Notes: generated by a model not told the origin, from the sequence alone. Shown: positions 3,514 to 32,602, counted from the stretch's first letter. The stretch: 64,000 nt of DNA from Patescibacteria group bacterium (GCA_024277435.1 JAJRVJ010000024.1:276-64275), one strand, 5' to 3'. Program-made: numbers and translations.

Positions 3514-4473
3514 TTAGCCACGGTAAAATAGATGCCCTAGATAAATTACATACATAACAAGGAAGCCCACTCCTTGCCATCGTTCGATATGATGACGCTT
3601 CCCTATAAATAGGGTAGCAAATAAAAGAACTGAGGCACCAAAAATTAACAATAAATCTATATTCAACGCCGGGTCATACGCCAAAGAGCCTACCGCTGCA
3701 CTTGCGCCAAGAATTAAGAAAATATTAAAGATATTAGAACCAATTACACCACCAACGGCCATGTCCACATTTTTCTTACGGGCCGCAATAACGGTAGCAG
3801 CTAGCTCTGGAAGCGAGGTACCTGGACCAGTAACAATTAAACCAATCAACGTTTGGCTCACGCCCAATTGAGCAGCAATTACTGTTGCGCTATCAACGAT
3901 CCATTTACCACCAAGGAATAAGGCTCCTATCCCTAACACAATATAGACAATTGATCGACTATTCGATAAATCTTTAACTTCTTCCGGAACAGTATCATCA
4001 GCCTTTGCTTTACTGATACCAAATGTGTAATACATGAAAATACCAAAAAAAGATAGCAGCGCTATACCATCTGTCCATGATAATTGCGGAATTCCACCAC
4101 CTATTACCCATTGATCATTTGCTAATATGATAAGCACCATAATAGCCAACAAGCTCAAAGGAATTTCTTTCCATACCGTACCGCGACGCACACTTAACGG
4201 ATAAATTATTGCCGCAATACCGAGGCCTAGTAATATATTGGTAACTACCGAACCCACAATATTAGCGATTGCTAAATCAGACGCACCGCCTATAGACGCG
4301 AACAATGTAACAATAAATTCAGGAGCCGATGTACCAAAAGCAACAATTGTTAAACCAATAACTAAATTGCTTACATTAAAGCGTTTTGCTACAGCTGCTC
4401 CACCTTCAACTAGGAAATTAGCACCGCCGATAAGGATGATAAAACCGAGGACAAGAAAAATATATACAGACAT
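3514..4473 (-). CDS. Na+/Ca2+ exchanger (CaCA family, YrbG-like)
   Basis: Two alpha-repeat signatures GTSAPE (N-terminal half) and GTSLPELA (C-terminal half), with about 10 TM helices. Confidence 0.85.
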   Translation of the reverse strand: MSVYIFLVLGFIILIGGANFLVEGGAAVAKRFNVSNLVIGLTIVAFGTSAPEFIVTLFASIGGASDLAIANIVGSVVTNILLGLGIAAIIYPLSVRRGTVWKEIPLSLLAIMVLIILANDQWVIGGGIPQLSWTDGIALLSFFGIFMYYTFGISKAKADDTVPEEVKDLSNSRSIVYIVLGIGALFLGGKWIVDSATVIAAQLGVSQTLIGLIVTGPGTSLPELAATVIAARKKNVDMAVGGVIGSNIFNIFLILGASAAVGSLAYDPALNIDLLLIFGASVLLFATLFIGKRHHIERWQGVGFLVMYVIYLGHLFYRG

Positions 4474-19579: not shown

Positions 19580-19648
19580 AATTCGTTGCGAATTAATAAT
19601 AAATACTATAAGCTGTAGTAAGTATAGCAAGTAATAATTATTCTGTGT

Positions 19649-20302
19649 ATGAACACATTTTTTGATATCAGTATGCCGCTAGTTCCTAACATGGTTACAT
19701 GGCCTGGAGAACCCAGTCCTACTCGTGTTGTAAATGGAACCGTGATCACAGATGGTAATGGCTCAGAAACCTCTACGCTAACTATAGGATCACATACAGG
19801 AACGCACATTGATGCTCCTCGTCATTTTGTAGCTGATATGGAAGATGGGGTTGATAGTATTTCCTTAGAACATCTTAATGGCATGTGTCATGTGGTAGAA
19901 ATTCTAGGACCAGAACAACGCGACGAACACGTGATTACCGTTGAAGATCTAAAAAAGATCACTATTACACATCCTAAAATTATTTTTAAAACAGCTAATA
20001 GTAAGAGAAAACTACTAGATACCACTGAATTTGATGAATCATATGTCTGCCTAGGTACTAAGGCAGCTGAATATTTAGTTGAACAAGGCGTACATTTTGT
20101 TGGTGTAGATTATTTATCGGTTGAACGCAAAGGTAGCCCTGGACATCCAGTACATGTAACGCTATTAAAAAATCGCACCGTAATTTTAGAAGGTGCATAT
20201 GTGCAAGATGTACCACCTGGCGACTATTGGCTCACCGCCCTACCATTACGTTTAATTGGTAGCGATGGATCTCCAACTCGTGCTATACTACGATCTGTAT
20301 AA
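19649..20302 (+). CDS. cyclase-family protein / kynurenine formamidase-like hydrolase
   Basis: ...IGSHTGTHIDAPRHF... is the metal-binding motif of the putative-cyclase/arylformamidase family. Confidence 0.7.
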   Translation: MNTFFDISMPLVPNMVTWPGEPSPTRVVNGTVITDGNGSETSTLTIGSHTGTHIDAPRHFVADMEDGVDSISLEHLNGMCHVVEILGPEQRDEHVITVEDLKKITITHPKIIFKTANSKRKLLDTTEFDESYVCLGTKAAEYLVEQGVHFVGVDYLSVERKGSPGHPVHVTLLKNRTVILEGAYVQDVPPGDYWLTALPLRLIGSDGSPTRAILRSV

Positions 20303-20330: not shown

Positions 20331-21314
20331 ATGACGCCAAAGAAATCAACTCAAGAATATGTACTGGGAATAGACTCAGGAGGCACAAAAACAGCGGCTG
20401 CCGTAGCTGATGCTAATGATGTACTTGGTCAAGGCGAAAACGGCCCTGGTAATATTGCCACAACCCCACCGGCCGACTTAATAAAACACCTACAGAAAGC
20501 TGTTGAAAAAGCCCTTCATCAGGCTAAGCTTCCGGCAACTACTAAATTCAAGTATATTGCCGTAGGAATGGCCGGAATAGACGATGAAAAAAACCAGCGT
20601 AAAGCTGAGCAAACGGTAAGCACTGCGCTGCGTAAATGGAAAACAAGTCGCACTACCCTAGCTGTACTGAACGATATTCACGTAGTGCGTCGTAGTGGAA
20701 CCGATTATCCATATGGAATTGCATTAATTGCTGGAACCGGATCTCATGGCCTAGGTATTAATCCGCAAGGTGAGGTAGCCCGAGTATCTGGAGTAGAATA
20801 CTTATTAGGTGATGAAGGTAGTGGATATGAGATGGGTGTAAAAGCATTGCGCGCAGCTATACGTAGCGCGGATGGTCGAATTCGAAAAACACATTTAGAA
20901 GAAGCTGTACTAGAATACTATACCGTAGATTCAGTGCGCGAACTTATTCCAGTAGTCTATAAAAATCCTGGTCGCAATAAAGCCCTTATCGCAGAACTCG
21001 CTAAGGTAGTAGAAGATGTAGCTGCCGATCATAATGATTGGCGCGCCAAACAAATTATTCAAGAAGGGCTTGATGAACTAGTGCTAGATGTTGCTACTTT
21101 AGTAAAACGACTAAAATTAAAAAATCTACCGTTCGATATAGTAGTGGCCGGTGGCATCTTTAAAATGAAACGCCTACCATTTCTACTTCGCTTTAAAAGA
21201 AATGTTAAACGCATAGCTCCAAAAGCTACCGTGGTAATGCCAAAGCGAGCTCCTGTGTGGGGTGCGGTTCGATTAGCGCAAGATCAGCTCCGTAAAAGTG
21301 ATGGGGCTCAATAA
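20331..21314 (+). CDS. BadF/BadG/BcrA/BcrD-type ATPase, N-acetylglucosamine kinase-like
   Basis: YVLGIDSGGTKTAAAV is the N-terminal phosphate-1 motif of the BadF/ROK-like sugar kinase fold, followed by LIAGTGS. Confidence 0.7.
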   Translation: MTPKKSTQEYVLGIDSGGTKTAAAVADANDVLGQGENGPGNIATTPPADLIKHLQKAVEKALHQAKLPATTKFKYIAVGMAGIDDEKNQRKAEQTVSTALRKWKTSRTTLAVLNDIHVVRRSGTDYPYGIALIAGTGSHGLGINPQGEVARVSGVEYLLGDEGSGYEMGVKALRAAIRSADGRIRKTHLEEAVLEYYTVDSVRELIPVVYKNPGRNKALIAELAKVVEDVAADHNDWRAKQIIQEGLDELVLDVATLVKRLKLKNLPFDIVVAGGIFKMKRLPFLLRFKRNVKRIAPKATVVMPKRAPVWGAVRLAQDQLRKSDGAQ

Positions 21315-22644
21315 TGCTATGAAATACATCCTAAATCTCACCTACCTCACTATTGTTCTTCTGCCAGCTGTGTTCTGGTGGGAAAATAAAAAAGAACTTT
21401 TTCAACTAGACCTTACTGTAGAAGTATACTTAAATTTATTTGGACAACTCGCTGGGCTCATTGGATTATCCATGATGTTTATGCAAATGGTAATTGCCGC
21501 CCGCAAGCACTGGATTGAGCGTTGGTATGGGCAAGATCGCCTCATGCGTTATCATCGCACCGCTGGACTAGTAACACTTCTTCTACTTCTCATTCATCCT
21601 AGTAGCTTCTATATTGCCTATTGGCTAGATAGCTATGAAGCATTCATGTCATTTCTATTACCATCGTTAGATTGGAAATCACTAGGAGTTGTATCATTAA
21701 ATTTACTTATTCTTACCATCATTCTTGCGTTATGGAGTGCTAAATTCAAAATAAAATATCACTGGTGGAAACGCATTCATTACATTACTTACCTCGCAAT
21801 GCTAGGCGGATATCTACATTCACTATTTCTGGGTTCAGATCTATTAATGGCTGGAAACATGCGTAATTATTGGTACTTCCTAGGAGGTATTGTAGTTCTG
21901 TCATTCCTCCATCTACGAATATGGAAACCATTGCTGGCAAAAATGCGTCCATATTCTATAGAATCAATTCGTAAAGAAGCAAATGGTGTACGCACTTTTA
22001 TCATTAATAAAAGTAACACGCATTCACTTAATTATGCGCCAGGCCAGTTTCTGTATATTAAATTTATCTCAAAAGATGTAACAACCGAATGGCATCCGTT
22101 CACTATTTCCAGCTCACCTACCGATGATACTCTTATGGTATCTATTAAAGCATCCGGTGATTGGACAAGCACTCTAGACTCAGTGATGCCTGGCGATCGA
22201 GTGCAACTCATGGCTCCATACGGAACATTCAATTTTGAACGACGCACAAGTAATACCGATATTGTATTTATCGCTGGCGGTATTGGTATCACCCCATTCC
22301 GTAGCATGCTACGCTATATTGCCGATAAAAAATTACCACATACCATACACTTACTGTATGGTAACCAAACGCGAGACGATATCGCTTTTCACGATGAACT
22401 TGATGCGCTAGACAAACAATTTGATGCTATTACTGTTACGCACGTACTTTCTAAGGATAAAACCTGGGATGGTGCAAAGGGACGCATTGATACACAGTGC
22501 CTAGAAAAATATGTGAGTGATATAGATAAAAAAGATTATTTTATCTGTGGACCCCCTGCAATGATGAAGGCTGTTAAACAAAGTTTGCGAGATTTAGGTG
22601 TTTCAAAAAATCAAATTCATACTGAAGAATTTTCTCTAAAATAA
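21298..22644 (+). CDS. ferric reductase / NADPH-oxidase (NOX/FRE) family flavocytochrome
   Basis: Six TM helices with paired His residues (heme ligands). The FAD motif HPFTISS and the NAD(P) motif GGIGITP (GxGxxP) follow. 448 aa. Confidence 0.75.
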   Translation: MMGLNNAMKYILNLTYLTIVLLPAVFWWENKKELFQLDLTVEVYLNLFGQLAGLIGLSMMFMQMVIAARKHWIERWYGQDRLMRYHRTAGLVTLLLLLIHPSSFYIAYWLDSYEAFMSFLLPSLDWKSLGVVSLNLLILTIILALWSAKFKIKYHWWKRIHYITYLAMLGGYLHSLFLGSDLLMAGNMRNYWYFLGGIVVLSFLHLRIWKPLLAKMRPYSIESIRKEANGVRTFIINKSNTHSLNYAPGQFLYIKFISKDVTTEWHPFTISSSPTDDTLMVSIKASGDWTSTLDSVMPGDRVQLMAPYGTFNFERRTSNTDIVFIAGGIGITPFRSMLRYIADKKLPHTIHLLYGNQTRDDIAFHDELDALDKQFDAITVTHVLSKDKTWDGAKGRIDTQCLEKYVSDIDKKDYFICGPPAMMKAVKQSLRDLGVSKNQIHTEEFSLK

Positions 22645-23048
22645 TGGGCAAACATCACGACCAACACGGCATCATTAAACTACTAAAAGAACGCGGTGAA
22701 CGCATCACACAGCCACGCGTACAGGTGATTGAATATTTATGCGATCATGATACTCCGGTAAGTGTGAAAAACCTGGAAAAAGCTTTGCCAAAAATTAACA
22801 TGGTAACGCTCTATCGTATTCTTGAGTATCTTGTTGAACACGACGTAGTAAAAGAACTTACACATGATCCCAAAGAAAAGTATTTTGAAATTGCTGACCC
22901 CTACCACGACCATCATCATCATATGATTTGTCGACGCTGTAACAAAATTCGCGATATTGACTGCAAAGTAGAAGTGCCCATTGTAAGAGACTTTATACCA
23001 GAAATGCATGTTGTTACCATATATGGACATTGCAAAAAATGTACGTAA
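22644..23048 (+). CDS. fur: Fur-family metal-responsive transcriptional regulator
   Basis: Winged-helix N-terminal part (ITQPRVQVIEYL), an HHHH box, and a CRRC...CKKC structural zinc site. Start overlaps the upstream stop (TAATG). Confidence 0.85.
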   Translation: MGKHHDQHGIIKLLKERGERITQPRVQVIEYLCDHDTPVSVKNLEKALPKINMVTLYRILEYLVEHDVVKELTHDPKEKYFEIADPYHDHHHHMICRRCNKIRDIDCKVEVPIVRDFIPEMHVVTIYGHCKKCT

Positions 23049-23450
23049 TTGATACAGTCAATACATACTATTCATTATCATATCTTTATGACAGAACGCG
23101 AACATAACATAGATCCGGAAGCTCAGCAGGTCAAAACTACACCTACTACACCCACAGCAACAGTAGTGCCAAAATCTGAAGGAGAACTAAGTAGCGGAGC
23201 AACCGCTGGTATCGCTACTGGAATTGGTGTTGGTAACGTATGTTGTGGTCCAATGTGCTACTGCATGCCATCGTTAGCATCAACTATTGTTGGTGTAATA
23301 CTCTATTTTGTATGGAAAGATAAAAAGCCTAAAACAGCTAAAACCATCCTAATAGTAACACTGATTACTGCTGGAATAGCTTTATTTAGCATGGGCGTAC
23401 TCTTCATGCTTGGCATGGCTGGCGCAATACTTGATAGCACTAATTACTAG
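23049..23450 (+). CDS. small Cys-cluster membrane protein (hypothetical)
   Basis: GNVCCGPMCYCMPSL Cys cluster followed by two TM helices. Abuts the fur stop. An alternative start MTEREHN exists at about 23091. Confidence 0.4.
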   Translation: MIQSIHTIHYHIFMTEREHNIDPEAQQVKTTPTTPTATVVPKSEGELSSGATAGIATGIGVGNVCCGPMCYCMPSLASTIVGVILYFVWKDKKPKTAKTILIVTLITAGIALFSMGVLFMLGMAGAILDSTNY

Positions 23451-23456
23451 TACAGC

Positions 23457-23807
23457 GTGAAGCCATTACATCATTACGTATGGATCTGTCATCGCAGACC
23501 AGATCGTTCATTTTTTTACCATGGAACCCAATACCCAGTATGCTCACGTTGCACAGGAACATGGCTTGGATATGGTATTGGAGTACTTATCATACTATTC
23601 TGGATAGCACCTATATGGATGGGATTACTATTAAGTATCCCTGCGGTAATTGATGGCGGTACACAATTTTTTCGTTGGCGATCTAGTAATAATCGCTTAC
23701 GATTAATCACCGGAACACTCCTTGGCGTATCTGAAGTAATACTATTTACACACATAGCCATCTGGGCAACACAAGCCGGATATTATATTGGCACCCTAGT
23801 GCGGTAA
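23457..23807 (+). CDS. DUF2085-like membrane protein (hypothetical)
   Basis: CHRRPDRSF...PVCSRCTGTWLGY followed by TM helices resembles the conserved CxRCTG motif of the DUF2085 family. Confidence 0.4.
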   Translation: MKPLHHYVWICHRRPDRSFFYHGTQYPVCSRCTGTWLGYGIGVLIILFWIAPIWMGLLLSIPAVIDGGTQFFRWRSSNNRLRLITGTLLGVSEVILFTHIAIWATQAGYYIGTLVR

Positions 23808-24578
23808 TGAACCTCCAAAAATTTCCCAGGTCGTAAGACAAATATCAATAAATAGTGCGAAAAATACAAGTAGTAATTCAATATGCAATCCCTCTCGCTC
23901 AGTAATAAGCGATAATACAAATTGCATCTCTTCTGTTGCAGTATCCCATTTTGAATTAACAAGTTTTATTCTACTACTCACCTCAAGATCCTCGTGAAGA
24001 TCCTTATATAGTCGCTCTATACGATCATTTTCCCAAACATCATCTGGAGTTTCTTCAAATCCAAATTCATAAAATGAATGAGCGCGATCACGTAATACTT
24101 GCCCCAATTGCATCATTAAACGCTTGCGCTTCATTTTTAGCTTCCCCGTTTTCTCAATTGGACGCAATATTCGATTAAGATCATATAACTGAACATCCAC
24201 CTCACCTTCCATACGCTCCAATACAACTGATTGTGCAAATGGATACGATAATGATACAACATCTCCAATAGAGATTTCTTCTAAACTGACATAATCGTAA
24301 CGAATTTTATCCTCTTTTCCCATCTCTAATCGAGCCTCTTGAGTAATTTGAGAATCAAACGGGCTTTTTACATACTTTTCTATACTCTTTAAAAATGCTC
24401 CTTGCTTTACTAATGGCACATTCCAAAATACAACAACCCCAAACCTAAAGACTACCGCATAACTTGCGCTACCATATTTATATACCAATACACTACCGTC
24501 GCGCTCAGCATCCGGCAGCATTGTATCGCGCAATTCTCGTGTATAGATTCGTAATGATATGGCTCGTGCGTAAATCAT
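23796..24578 (-). CDS. RMD1/DUF155-family protein
   Basis: ...YAVVFRFGVVVFWNV... matches the conserved F-x-Y/F-G-x-V-V-F-W-N core of the DUF155 (Rmd1/Sif2) family. C-terminal TM helix. Confidence 0.6.
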   Translation of the reverse strand: MIYARAISLRIYTRELRDTMLPDAERDGSVLVYKYGSASYAVVFRFGVVVFWNVPLVKQGAFLKSIEKYVKSPFDSQITQEARLEMGKEDKIRYDYVSLEEISIGDVVSLSYPFAQSVVLERMEGEVDVQLYDLNRILRPIEKTGKLKMKRKRLMMQLGQVLRDRAHSFYEFGFEETPDDVWENDRIERLYKDLHEDLEVSSRIKLVNSKWDTATEEMQFVLSLITEREGLHIELLLVFFALFIDICLTTWEIFGGSLPH

Positions 24579-29206: not shown

Positions 29207-29355
29207 AGATATGCATTATAGCATATTCTAAGACCTCACCCATAATCTCGACCCATCCCCTTACAGGAGAGGGATTATTGACGCATATTCCCCGTCTCCT
29301 GAAAGGAGAAGGGGTTAGGGGAAAAGGTCGAGACTAGGGATTGGGTGAGGTTTTT

Positions 29356-29411
29356 TTAGAAAAGCAAAAGGCCCGTGAACCTTAATGGTGGAATACACCA
29401 GTTCACGGGCC
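29356..29411 (-). terminator. intrinsic terminator for the GC-rich island transcript (minus strand)
   Basis: Perfect 11-bp stem ggcccgtgaac / gttcacgggcc (29370-29380 / 29401-29411) with a 20-nt loop. An A-run lies on the plus strand just before it, so a U-run follows the hairpin on the minus-strand RNA. Confidence 0.5.
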
Positions 29412-29561
29412 AGATTGTTTGCCGCCGACTCCCGCTGCAAGAGCAAGGCCGGTCAGGCTGGGACCGCGTTTACGCGACCCCACGGGGTTTGGGTTGGGAG
29501 CTCTACTCAGCTCAACCAACCGATGTGCGTTTTACTTCCGGGAGGTAGCCGGAAGGGGGCT

Positions 29562-30116
29562 CTAGAACAACCAGAGGAGGAAGTCCTTGAACTCCTCCCC
29601 CATCGACACCGTGCTCTCCGCGTGCCAGAAGCCCGCGGGGTAGCCGAACGTGAGGTAGAACCCGAGGATGACGCCGCACGTCATGACGACGTACCAGAAC
29701 CGGCGCATGCCGATCCCGTTCACGAGCTTCACGTTCTGCAAGAACACGAAGCTCAGCGACAGGCCGATGACGACCACCGTGAAGCGGGCGTCCATCAGCC
29801 GGGCCGGAGCGTTCGGCGCGATCCAGTCCACCGGGCCAGACATAACGTCCAGCCCCCAGGCGAACAGGAACCACAGCACCGAAAAGATCGGCGCTGCGAT
29901 AATCACCGAGATCACCGCCCAGGCCAGCCGCTTGCCGAATCCCGGCAACTTCGCCTTGGGGTTGTACTTGGCCAGGAGCGACTGCTCCTCAGGACTCGTC
30001 TCCAGCTTCTGGCCGGTGACGACCCTCACCACCACCATGGTGGCGATGAGGCCAAGAGCCAGGAGCGCAGCGATGAAGCTACCGGCGATGATCCAGTTCA
30101 GGGTTGTGGTAGGCAT
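29562..30116 (-). CDS. GC-rich island gene: polytopic membrane protein (hypothetical)
   Basis: GGAG plus ATG at 30116 (MPTTTLNWIIAG...). About 5 TM helices, Trp-rich. Visibly much higher GC than the surrounding genes. Confidence 0.5.
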   Translation of the reverse strand: MPTTTLNWIIAGSFIAALLALGLIATMVVVRVVTGQKLETSPEEQSLLAKYNPKAKLPGFGKRLAWAVISVIIAAPIFSVLWFLFAWGLDVMSGPVDWIAPNAPARLMDARFTVVVIGLSLSFVFLQNVKLVNGIGMRRFWYVVMTCGVILGFYLTFGYPAGFWHAESTVSMGEEFKDFLLWLF

Positions 30117-30274
30117 TTTAAGCTCCGGTGAGTGATTGAGAGAAGAACAGAAAGTTAGTAGAGATGACCTCAATCCGCTGGCTCGTTGCCGTGCGGAGAA
30201 ATCTTTCTCTTTCATAAAGCGATGGGTCGCGGCGAGAGGAACGAATCCATCCTCGCCGCGACCCGGATTGGTGA

Positions 30275-31981
30275 CTACGGCCCACCGAAGGGACCGCCGC
30301 CACCGAAGCCAGCGCCAGCCGCCGCGCTAGCGATGGCAGGGTTGAGACCCATGCCACCAAGCGCGGTGATGACGTTGTCGATGCCGGCGTCACCCATGGC
30401 TAGCAACGTCGTAACGTTGGCCACCGCGCGAGCGATGGTAGCCTCGTCGATGTTGGCATCTCGGAGGCTCTGCACCATGTTGTGGATGTGGAACCGTCGG
30501 CTCAAGACATTCTTGTCCGCCTCGGAGGACGGCTCGGGGTCCTTCAGCCGGTTCTCGTCCCGCGGCACGTAGAGCCCGCAGCTCTCCGTCAACTGCGCCT
30601 CGAAGGCATTCAGCAACGGGAGAACACGAGCTTCCGCACGACGCGCCTGCATTTTCGGATGGCGCGAAGTGGCCGCCCGAAACTGACCAGGCTGAGCCAG
30701 CTCTGCGATCGGCATCATGGCCCCGACGAGGTCGAAGCCGACCACATGGCACAGGCCACCGGCCAATGCGTCCAACGCGTCGTCGAGGACTCGCACCCAG
30801 GATGGGTTGTTCCACATGAGGAACACGTTGATGACGCGCCAGTTGAATCCACCCTTGACGGTGACGTCAACCGTGCCGGCCATGTACGGCCCCTTCTCGT
30901 AGTCCCAGTCCGTGATGGGCTGGAGCAAGAAGTACTCGATGCCGAGGGCAGCGAGCGTGGGGCTGTGAGCCGCGAAGAACTCGAACATGGAGTCGTTCAA
31001 CGTCATGATCCGCGTGTAGAACGGGATGCCGGGGAAGGCGAACCCGGGGCCAACCCAGAGGTTCCGGTTAAGGAAGGGCCGGGGGTCAGCCCGGTTCTCC
31101 AGATCCACCTGCATCCAGGTCCAGACCTCCTCGAGGTTTCCGGTGATCGTCCACCACAGCCCAGGCCACAACGGCAAGGGCTCGTTAGGCAGCGGAACGC
31201 CGGTGAGGTTCGCGATGGCGTGGGAGGGGTTACCACCCGCGCCGAACATCTTGGCGACGCCGGGCTTGTCCACCGCGGCGTACCAGACGTTGCGATCCGC
31301 CATCCACATGTTGATCGAGATCCAGGTGAGGAGCACGACCAAGACGATTCCGACGGTAACGATGACCACTACGCCCTGCATCACCACGCTGAACCAGCCA
31401 CTGAGGCTGGTCTGTGCCCAACCAACACCCTGCAATCCCCACCAAAGGAGAACGCCCGCCACAGCGGAGCGCAAGCCCCAGTAGAAGGCGCCGGGCCGCA
31501 CCACGAAGTGGACGAACCGGCTGGCGAGGATGTAGCCGAACATGATGGCGGCCAGGATGAGCCACGTCTTCCCAGCCATGGCCGGGTCGTAGATGGCTCC
31601 AGCCTTCACGGGCAGCACGTGGATGAGCTTCATCATCCAGTGGTCCGCGCCCCAAGGAAGCGTCTTCGGCTTCACGAAGGGGAGGAAGTAGATGAAGGTG
31701 ATCGCCATGCCCTGCAAGAGGGCGACGGGGCTCCACGGCTGGCCGACGACGAGCGTGTTATCACGCCGGCGGGTGAAGTAACCGGTGAGCGCCCAAACAG
31801 CCGCGGCCATGAGGGCCGGGACGAAATGATCCATGTTGATGGGGTTGGGGTTGGGGTTAGAAAAGTTGAGGCTGTCGATCACGTCCTTGGCGAAGAACGC
31901 CAGGACGAAGATCCAGATAAGATTGAGGAAGGACATGAAACGCCGGAAGTTTCCGAAGTGCATTAGAATCTCCTGATGCAC
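30275..31981 (-). CDS. GC-rich island gene: 568-aa polytopic membrane protein with a soluble C-terminal domain and Gly-rich tail (hypothetical)
   Basis: A 1.7-kb open frame in GC-rich DNA. Seven or more N-terminal TM helices, a Trp-rich soluble region, and a tail ending ...AGAGFGGGGPFGGP. No family recognised. Confidence 0.55.
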   Translation of the reverse strand: MHQEILMHFGNFRRFMSFLNLIWIFVLAFFAKDVIDSLNFSNPNPNPINMDHFVPALMAAAVWALTGYFTRRRDNTLVVGQPWSPVALLQGMAITFIYFLPFVKPKTLPWGADHWMMKLIHVLPVKAGAIYDPAMAGKTWLILAAIMFGYILASRFVHFVVRPGAFYWGLRSAVAGVLLWWGLQGVGWAQTSLSGWFSVVMQGVVVIVTVGIVLVVLLTWISINMWMADRNVWYAAVDKPGVAKMFGAGGNPSHAIANLTGVPLPNEPLPLWPGLWWTITGNLEEVWTWMQVDLENRADPRPFLNRNLWVGPGFAFPGIPFYTRIMTLNDSMFEFFAAHSPTLAALGIEYFLLQPITDWDYEKGPYMAGTVDVTVKGGFNWRVINVFLMWNNPSWVRVLDDALDALAGGLCHVVGFDLVGAMMPIAELAQPGQFRAATSRHPKMQARRAEARVLPLLNAFEAQLTESCGLYVPRDENRLKDPEPSSEADKNVLSRRFHIHNMVQSLRDANIDEATIARAVANVTTLLAMGDAGIDNVITALGGMGLNPAIASAAAGAGFGGGGPFGGP

Positions 31982-32602
31982 GAGAACTTTTTGGGTAAAC
32001 CCAGGATAGTAAATTTCCCCGAACCAACGCTTCCGCGCCAGCCCGGTTAACTACCCCTCGATCTTGTTGACCTACCCACCACTGGGCAAGAGTCATAATT
32101 TTCCATTGCACCCTTGCGGATGGTAGGCAGATCGATGTATGGGGCCTAATAAAACCACATGCATCGATCTGCCTGTTATAGGTAACAGATCTATTGTTAT
32201 TTCGTATGTAAGTTGTCAAAGATCACCCGTACTACAATTCCGTCCATTACTGCGCGTCCCCCGTAGGGGATCAATTGCTTGTAGAGGTACAAACGTTTTG
32301 CGCCTCTACTTCAATTGATACATTAATTATACGCTGGCTATTTGGTACTATATATATGTGTTTGGTGTATATTTGAAAGAGTGCATTCCTTCAAATAACA
32401 CCTGTTGATTATACGCCGCTCTGTTATTACCTTCGATAGCTATACAGTGCATAACGTATATATTGCATCATCAATAAGATGACTAATCAGTTTAGACCTA
32501 GTAGCTCAAACCCACAATATATAAAAGGTGCACAACTGAAAAGTAAAACATTATAATTAAAAAATAACTATTTGTCAATAATCTCTATCACAATCAATAT
32601 TA

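Follow-up and report, generated by a model that had tools for sequence, protein, structure and literature searches.

What brings a NOX-type flavocytochrome, a Fur-family regulator and two small membrane proteins together in a bacterium of the Candidate Phyla Radiation (CPR)? The question is raised by four genes in a 64,000-nucleotide stretch of DNA from a Patescibacteria group bacterium (GCA_024277435.1, JAJRVJ010000024.1:276-64275), referred to here, at its full length, as the window. An earlier note had taken these genes for a single operon and had proposed for them a Fur-autoregulated role in reductive metal acquisition or in superoxide generation. The answer reached here is that the four genes are two separable modules and not one conserved unit, and that a redox or oxidative-stress cluster is to be favoured over reductive iron uptake. 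We give about an even chance to the reading that a lineage-specific pair of NOX and Fur-family genes stands beside, and is probably co-expressed with, a local variant of a gene pair built around the membrane protein DUF2085, the whole forming a redox or oxidative-stress cluster that is read through from an upstream cyclase-kinase gene pair. The most general new observation is that DUF2085 usually has as its neighbour a small membrane protein, Cys-rich or of the zinc-ribbon kind, a pairing of which no description was found in the literature searched.

Two modules in a variable slot

The open reading frames (ORFs), their strand and the identities of their products agree with the earlier account of four co-directional genes, tightly packed on the + strand at 21.3-23.8 kb, and they are laid out as follows:

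21319-22644, + strand: NAD(P)H-dependent flavocytochrome b of the S. pneumoniae NOX (SpNOX) type, NOX/FRE family (Pfam, match to SpNOX in the PDB, motifs)
22644-23048, + strand: Fur-family metal-dependent regulator of mixed subtype (Pfam FUR, PDB match to PerR)
23049-23087, no strand: 39-bp spacer between the fur and small-protein genes, with one Fur-box-like match inside
23088-23450, + strand: small Cys-cluster membrane protein of 120 aa, partner of DUF2085 (alignments; the ORF opens at 23049)
23457-23807, + strand: DUF2085 membrane protein (Pfam, AlphaFold2 model)

These genes close a run of six + strand genes with very short gaps, in the order cyclase, BadF/G-type kinase, NOX/FRE, Fur family, small Cys-cluster protein and DUF2085. 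A backbone of MacB-type ABC transporter, cobalamin adenosyltransferase, kinase, variable slot, queG and HhH-GPD glycosylase genes is conserved across Kerfeldbacteria-like relatives (Patescibacteria/CPR), and it is the content of the slot that varies among the related loci, which are designated by L numbers:

All four genes: the window, L001, L002 and L126
NOX and Fur only: L003 (and fragment L004) and L005
NOX only: L006
Small protein and DUF2085 only, same slot: L011/L012
Small protein and DUF2085 only, unrelated context: L007-L009/L013

In module 1, the NOX and Fur genes lie at most 3 nt apart or overlap by 1 nt in all six distinct loci that carry both (the window, L001, L002, L003, L005 and L126), and judged from this spacing their translational coupling is conserved; in the window the stop codon of NOX overlaps the start codon of fur by a single base (TAATG), as had already been remarked upon. 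In module 2, the small protein and DUF2085 go together: each locus of the lineage has either both or neither at the slot or site that was inspected, and in the close family DUF2085 follows the small protein directly in 9 of 10 distinct loci and within about 110 bp in L125. A scan of the NOX alignment against one genome per species yielded 80 diverse NOX loci, 72 of them with at least 1 kb of downstream and 73 with at least 1 kb of upstream sequence. Neither DUF2085 nor the small protein was found in the flanks of any of these 80 loci, and none has an adjacent Fur gene, the nearest approach being a Fur-family ORF at a distance of more than 2.5 kb in two of them. Pairing of NOX with Fur is therefore a peculiarity of this lineage. 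Linkage across genomes, by which the earlier proposal was to be judged, was found for NOX and Fur within the lineage, whereas the four-gene unit is not conserved.

Much of this distribution would also be expected from chance juxtaposition, in which unrelated modules have come to lie together in a recombination-prone interval between the kinase gene and queG that collects accessory genes. The slot holds changing sets of genes across relatives (those for a 55-aa Cys-rich protein, DUF6498, NOX, Fur, the small protein, DUF2085 and DUF155), each module is found without the other, NOX loci elsewhere never occur with module 2, and distant loci of small protein and DUF2085 never occur with NOX. We nevertheless consider chance an unlikely explanation, because the Cys-cluster pair lies within 2 kb of NOX in six of eight distinct contexts, comprising two NOX clades and two gene orders, and because the four loci with all four genes are all co-directional and closely spaced. 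In the second gene order, represented by L125 (5300-7733), a NOX gene on the - strand is divergent from MsrB, small-protein and DUF2085 genes on the + strand, and Fur is absent. In L010 (2903-8299) a NOX gene is located 1.8 kb from the pair, MsrB and rhodanese genes follow further along, and again there is no Fur. The NOX proteins of these two loci are only 29-31% identical to that of the window, the small proteins about 53%. Such recurrence in two clades and two orders argues for a functional connection within the lineage. The second NOX clade, to which L125 and L010 belong, has proteins of 424 aa with an HPFSV motif, and the L010 cluster also holds a CAP-domain gene.

The NOX-type enzyme, its regulator and the case for iron

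The NOX protein is a new member of a known and large enzyme family (3009 homologues at E <= 1e-10); after an identical entry its nearest relatives are 50-54% identical, and the closest named one, from Candidatus Kerfeldbacteria, is 44% identical. It carries the Pfam domains Ferric_reduct (residues 52-170), FAD_binding_8 and NAD_binding_1 in this order, and SpNOX (PDB 8QT6/8QQ7) aligns with it over residues 42-433, that is at full length (E = 1.8e-22). Every sequence feature by which bacterial NOX enzymes have been defined (Hajjar et al., 2017; PMC5676040) was found in it. The FAD motif H[PSA]F[TS][LIMV] is present as HPFTI at residue 265 (447-aa numbering), GIGITP is located at residue 327, and the two His-x12-14-His pairs are the heme ligands H85-x13-H99 and H160-x12-H173, all four of which are invariant among 17 homologues. 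Of the six transmembrane (TM) segments that precede the dehydrogenase part, five are clear in a hydropathy scan and the His-bearing helix 157-177 is the sixth. The bis-heme, six-TM flavocytochrome with HPFTISS and GGIGITP that had been described from the window is thereby confirmed. Its start needs correction: the ORF does open at GTG 21298, the position given earlier, and the database gene call begins at ATG 21301, but both are in-frame upstream extensions, and since the relatives begin with MK... and are 442 aa long the true start is probably ATG 21319 (MKYILNL..., 441 aa), 4 nt past the kinase stop.

Compared with SpNOX (PDB 8QQ7, 8QT6; Hajjar et al., 2017; Dubach et al., 2024), the window enzyme is likewise a single chain of similar size in which a ferric-reductase TM domain is followed by FAD- and NAD(P)H-binding domains, and both share HPF[TS], GxGxxP, the His-x13-His and His-x12-His pairs and a conserved C-terminal aromatic residue. 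It differs in being a distant homologue from a CPR host, and in having a coupled downstream Fur-family gene and a neighbouring DUF2085 pair, a linkage for which no description was found in the literature searched. Homology to SpNOX makes superoxide generation possible. The structural work on SpNOX itself left room for a physiological acceptor different from O2, and its direct ferric reductase activity was measurable but very low (PMC11564096).

The regulator belongs to the Fur family (Pfam FUR, 66.7 bits against a cut-off of 23.1). Of the proteins in the PDB it is closest to B. subtilis PerR (2FE3, E = 1.9e-12); a putative iron uptake regulator (3EYY, 6.2e-10) comes next, and then Fur proteins (about 1e-9). 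Among NCBIfam models those for PerR rank at the top, yet all PerR and Fur models stay far below their cut-offs. The CxxC pairs of the structural Zn site (C96/C99 and C130/C133) are invariant in its relatives, as are, in five of these, E82 (at PerR Asp85), H91, H93 and D104. D104 aligns with D104 of PerR, and this position separates PerR proteins, which have Asp, from Fur proteins, which have Glu (PMC4866751; the criterion is also used in PMC8638967). The regulator thus resembles B. subtilis PerR and B. licheniformis PerR3 (BL00950) in its Fur fold, two CxxC pairs, His91, His93 and Asp104, and it shares with PerR3 the replacement of Asp85 by Glu, the combination of Glu85 and Asp104 being that of PerR3 (PMC4866751). 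A Zur subtype was rejected, as the position of PerR Asp85, where Zur proteins have Cys as an S-donor ligand, is occupied by Glu82 (PMC4866751). An iron-sensing Fur subtype was likewise rejected, given Asp instead of Glu at position 104 and no Fur box at NOX.

Several observations weigh against a peroxide-responsive redox cluster and are taken together here. The second canonical PerR residue is Asn61 in the recognition helix, which is Arg in Fur (PMC8638967), and the residue aligned with it in the regulator is an invariant R58. His35 of the regulator is aligned by HMMER with PerR His37, in a stretch where the alignment needs gaps, and this column holds Gln in three of the five relatives (L001, L003 and L005). 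Also different from PerR is an invariant HxHHHH run. As it has the PerR-type Asp104 without Asn61, we do not file it as a PerR; by its residues it is a Fur-family protein of mixed subtype, with PerR-type Asp104 and Fur-type Arg in the DNA-recognition helix. With Arg at Asn61, and Gln at the His37 column of three relatives, we regard peroxide sensitivity as no more than plausible. The Fur box that the earlier note proposed to look for upstream of 21298 was not found: NOX is preceded in the window neither by an intergenic stretch nor by a palindrome of the Fur-box kind. Window-wide, 7-1-7 patterns with up to 3 mismatches occurred at chance level both for the PerR box (12 matches, 15.8 expected) and for the Fur box (9 matches, 9.5 expected). 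The TTATAAT conserved upstream of NOX in relatives resembles a -10 box and is also present in L006, a locus without fur. Eight of the 80 diverse NOX loci belong to other Patescibacteria, and in these none of the three partner genes is present. Wherever NOX is linked to the small protein and DUF2085, the locus is from a single broad CPR lineage, so that part of the linkage of NOX with module 2 may reflect shared ancestry and inherited synteny.

The same regulator has to be considered in the light of iron. In a Fur-regulated reductive acquisition system, the regulator would sense Fe(II), the NOX/FRE enzyme would reduce extracellular Fe(III) under scarcity, and the small proteins would form or assist an unrecognised entry route for Fe(II). 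The family of the enzyme, the Fur-type Arg in the recognition helix, the measurable ferric reductase activity of SpNOX and the polar residues conserved in the membrane-spanning part of DUF2085 (D66, Q70, S77, N79 and R82) are in line with such a function. So is the lack of a known iron permease nearby, which bears out the earlier note: neither Feo nor EfeU/FTR1 was found within about 6 kb, among the Pfam-annotated genes at about 16.8-29.2 kb, nor in syntenic relatives. The comparison with fungal and plant iron uptake, in which FRE/FRO reductases work with an Ftr1 or IRT permease, extends to a NOX/FRE reductase that here adjoins a metal-sensing regulator. It does not extend to the rest of the system, as the window cluster has no permease, no ferroxidase and no Fur box that could be found, its regulator has the PerR-type Asp, and SpNOX, the homologue from bacteria, reduces ferric iron poorly (PMC11564096). 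Moreover, Fur is adjacent to none of the 80 diverse NOX loci. The sampled pairs of small protein and DUF2085 in other organisms come with zinc-ribbon, FHA or kinase fusions and on virus-like contigs, and no iron genes were seen among their inspected neighbours. In L125 and L010 the companion is MsrB and not Fur, which points to redox stress. We therefore do not follow the earlier note in reading the locus as reductive metal acquisition, a function that the PerR-type Asp104, the missing Fur box and the MsrB-linked pairs without Fur make decidedly unlikely.

A Cys-cluster protein paired with DUF2085

The fur gene had been described as directly abutting the gene for the small protein. The most likely start of the latter is ATG 23088, giving 120 aa and leaving the 39-bp spacer listed above, because this start is identical to the database gene call (P0121) and the relatives are 107-135 aa long. 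The protein consists of a disordered N-terminal tail, the cluster GNVCCGPMCYC (which contains the CCGPMCYC recorded before), the motif ILYFVWKDxKPKTAK and a second hydrophobic helix. C52, C53 and C57 are invariant in its family and a fourth Cys is usual. This Cys-cluster family is tiny, with about 20 sequences among 5.8 billion and full-length matches to 3-4 clusters among 1.84 billion representatives. The structure model has low confidence, with a predicted local distance difference test (pLDDT) of 61, and was left out of the fold search and of the assignment of topology. Distant relatives share the C-terminal anchor alone (GIILYFVWKDxKPxxAK and the second helix, with a weak PLDc_N match), and their N-termini are zinc ribbons, FHA domains or a Ser/Thr kinase.

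The anchor family occurs in several further arrangements. A Ser/Thr protein kinase fused to the ILYFVWKD anchor is encoded directly upstream of DUF2085 in L023 (567-2206), and FHA-domain fusions to the anchor were found without DUF2085 in L040-L044. These kinase and FHA fusions hint at a signalling role for the anchor family. Tandem duplications in the order small protein, DUF2085, small protein, small protein, DUF2085 are present in L024 (309-2250) and L025 (4851-6768), and L027 and L034 have arrays of 3-4 paralogous zinc-ribbon proteins with the ILYF anchor, without DUF2085.

The DUF2085 gene begins 6 bp past the small gene, as had been stated, and encodes the CxRCTG motif as CSRCTG. Its product is a clear family member (PF09858, 98.6 bits against a cut-off of 25), so that the family assignment asked for by the earlier note succeeded for this protein; for the Cys-cluster protein of the window no Pfam or NCBIfam model gave a hit above cut-off, the models including PLDc_N (PF13396), LITAF-like (PF10601) and zinc ribbons. 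Conserved in DUF2085 are the motifs CHRRPDRSF...PVCxRCTG (PVCSRCTG in the window) and IDGxTQ...RESNNxLR. The AlphaFold2 model (pLDDT 90) shows an N-terminal beta-hairpin with C11, H12, C29 and C32 followed by three helices, and no solved structure resembling it was found. The Cys3His knuckle probably binds metal, and judging from the Arg-rich N-terminus the conserved site probably faces the cytoplasm. The literature searched mentions DUF2085 only incidentally, in three papers, and holds no functional work on it. Both membrane proteins are indeed uncharacterised. A role of the pair in anti-phage defence or in phages was rejected, PADLOC and PHROGs giving no hits for DUF2085 or for the small protein of the window.

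The pairing itself was seen in two independently chosen samples. Where loci were chosen by the small protein, DUF2085 lies directly downstream in 15 of the 29 metagenome loci that have enough downstream sequence, sometimes as tandem duplicates. Where they were chosen by DUF2085, on virus-like contigs, a small Cys-rich membrane protein is adjacent in 13 of 15 sequence clusters. In 12 of these clusters it is the product of an overlapping upstream gene, a split zinc ribbon of 58-110 aa with a hydrophobic Cys-/Gly-rich core (CPKCG...GCCGALLLGPIGLLCGACGKGK...CxxCG), and in one further cluster an ILYF-type protein is encoded directly downstream. The split zinc ribbon-DUF2085 arrangement is located on the IMG/VR contigs L135-L142, L144-L148, L150 and L152, at about 2690-2960 in each; some of the neighbours on these contigs look prophage-regulatory, such as a HEXXH peptidase-like ORF in L141. 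These DUF2085-preceding proteins weakly resemble LITAF/SIMPLE-like zinc ribbons (PF10601) in having two CxxC knuckles that flank a hydrophobic Cys-/Gly-rich segment, to which the CCGPxCYC segment of the window protein in turn bears a likeness. The Pfam match is below threshold (best E = 6e-4, in 3 of the 12 members), and a comparison of the window family with the LITAF-like partners by hhalign gave a probability of just 8%, so that this is resemblance and not membership, and homology of the window protein to these partners was rejected.

The nearness of MsrB and of a Cys cluster to a NOX enzyme brings to mind the MsrPQ system of E. coli, in which the heme-b protein MsrQ works with the periplasmic MsrP. 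By analogy, the exposed outer heme of NOX would pass electrons, instead of to O2, to a protein or thiol acceptor on the outer face of the membrane for the repair of oxidised envelope proteins, with the Cys-cluster protein and DUF2085 acting as this acceptor or as a relay towards it. In both cases a heme protein with a ferric-reductase domain may supply a partner and not O2, the small protein has three invariant Cys and a common fourth, and MsrB is next to the pair in L125 and part of its cluster in L010. The window enzyme differs, however, in having its own dehydrogenase domain, and there is no MsrP. The MsrB of L125 is of the plain cytoplasmic type, without signal peptide or membrane anchor, and the annotated genes up to about 6 kb from the window cluster include no MsrB. 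The side of the membrane on which the Cys cluster lies is not fixed by a model of such low pLDDT, the conserved site of DUF2085 probably lies in the cytoplasm, and the distant partners of DUF2085 carry cytoplasmic domains. On this evidence an MsrPQ-like chain is a most improbable account of the locus.

Probable read-through and a possible role in redox stress

The redox or oxidative-stress reading includes transcription from upstream of NOX, and the genes and regions that surround the four are these:

19580-19648, no strand: candidate promoter region by presumed role, the only sizeable intergenic stretch upstream of the co-directional run
19649-20302, + strand: putative cyclase (PF04199, Pfam E = 7.5e-25), backbone gene
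20331-21314, + strand: BadF/BadG/BcrA/BcrD-type ATPase, N-acetylglucosamine kinase-like (Pfam E = 2e-34), backbone gene
23796-24578, - strand: convergent DUF155 (RMND1/Sif2-like) gene (Pfam), outside the co-directional run

The run of close-packed genes starts upstream of NOX with the cyclase (19649) and kinase (20331) genes, and the cyclase gene, whose upstream position is shared by L011/L012 and L126, probably opens the transcription unit in the window. The kinase, whose NagK-like NCBIfam match is below cut-off, precedes the slot in the syntenic relatives L001-L006, L011/L012 and L126. At the other end, the DUF155 gene, found in only some relatives, overlaps the 3' end of the DUF2085 gene by 12 bp and marks the end of the run.

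In five relatives the kinase and NOX genes are separated by about 200-250 bp, which hold a divergent gene for a 55-aa Cys-rich protein and a promoter region of about 60 bp. The window has neither this gene nor its promoter spacer; as a promoter-bearing spacer upstream of NOX is missing, the four genes are probably read through from the cyclase-kinase pair. The conserved elements of the spacer in the relatives read as back-to-back -10 boxes, TATAAT and, on the opposite strand, TGCTATACT. The conserved upstream element ATTAATTATAAT matches the PerR box at 11-12 of 14 positions, but the match overlaps the -10 box, and since the element contains the -10 hexamer and persists in L006 without fur it was rejected as an operator and treated as a promoter element. 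Within the window, the search for inverted repeats gave none upstream of NOX, in the spacer between the fur and small-protein genes or at 19.58 kb. A Fur-box-like match with 3 mismatches at 23066-23080, in that spacer, is not conserved in L001 or L002 and, with match counts at chance level, is no evidence for an operator. The region 19580-19648 shares no operator-like element with L126, and its best PerR-box match (11 of 14) is at chance level. A promoter scan of the window did no better than shuffled sequence (15 promoter-like sites, 20.9 expected), and a terminator scan found none on the + strand.

The 55-aa gene lies on the - strand, divergent from NOX, in L001 (1592-1756), L002 (5773-5937), L003 (5089-5253), L005 (5807-5971) and L006 (5791-5955). 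Its product has the conserved pattern MSKVYVCTGSCHGQSD..NCG..SC....QPL..M.KCD.CG...E.H.C and no Pfam, NCBIfam or PDB match. L126 has a gene for a DUF6498 membrane protein (3565-4170) between kinase and NOX, where the others have the 55-aa gene. Divergent promoter regions repeatedly contain the element AGTATAGCA (window 19625-19640, L001 1795-1805 and the aligned positions of L002-L006). Its opposite strand is TGCTATACT, an extended -10 box, and it may be a type of promoter common to this lineage.

Neither the Rfam scan nor the tRNA scan of the window gave a match. Further downstream, the guanine-plus-cytosine (GC) content rises sharply to 62-64% over 2.6 kb (29350-32000) in a contig that otherwise has 38-40% GC. 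The longest ORF of this island (30275-31981, - strand, 568 aa) encodes numerous hydrophobic stretches and a C-terminus rich in Gly, without a Pfam hit or a match in the phage collection. Tandem repeats are absent from the island, which may represent foreign DNA or a chimera of the assembly.

Under the redox or oxidative-stress reading, two two-gene modules occupy the variable slot between the BadF/G-type kinase gene and queG. In module 1, NOX would draw electrons from NAD(P)H in the cytoplasm and conduct them, by way of FAD and two b hemes, to an external acceptor, most likely O2. The Fur-family repressor translationally coupled to it, the metal site of which carries the Asp that makes PerR peroxide-sensitive, would read Fe/Mn and peroxide status and exert feedback on how the unit is transcribed. 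The Cys-cluster protein and DUF2085, which make up module 2, would be the local form of the common pair of DUF2085 with a small Cys-rich or zinc-ribbon membrane protein. It probably joins the same redox or oxidative-stress response, and not iron uptake, because within the lineage it repeatedly stands beside NOX together with Fur or MsrB. The companions, a regulator with PerR-type Asp and MsrB, give the cluster its redox-stress flavour. Gene identities, motifs, spacing and linkage patterns are the observations on which this model is built; the acceptor, the signal of the regulator, autoregulation and any physical link between the modules are inferred.

For the most part CPR bacteria have no respiratory chain and are missing many biosynthetic pathways, and a two-heme flavocytochrome in such an organism is therefore physiologically notable in itself. 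It can be speculated further that DUF2085 and its partner form a widespread metal-binding or thiol-relay module which serves here as partner or acceptor of NOX under a peroxide-sensitive Fur-family regulator. We hold this to be very unlikely; if true, it would be the first genomic handle on the purpose of bacterial NOX enzymes. The locus offers concrete NOX partners to examine, namely the Fur-family regulator, the Cys-rich membrane pair and, in relatives, MsrB, and the pairing of DUF2085, seen in two independently chosen samples, is a simple entry point for the characterisation of this family.

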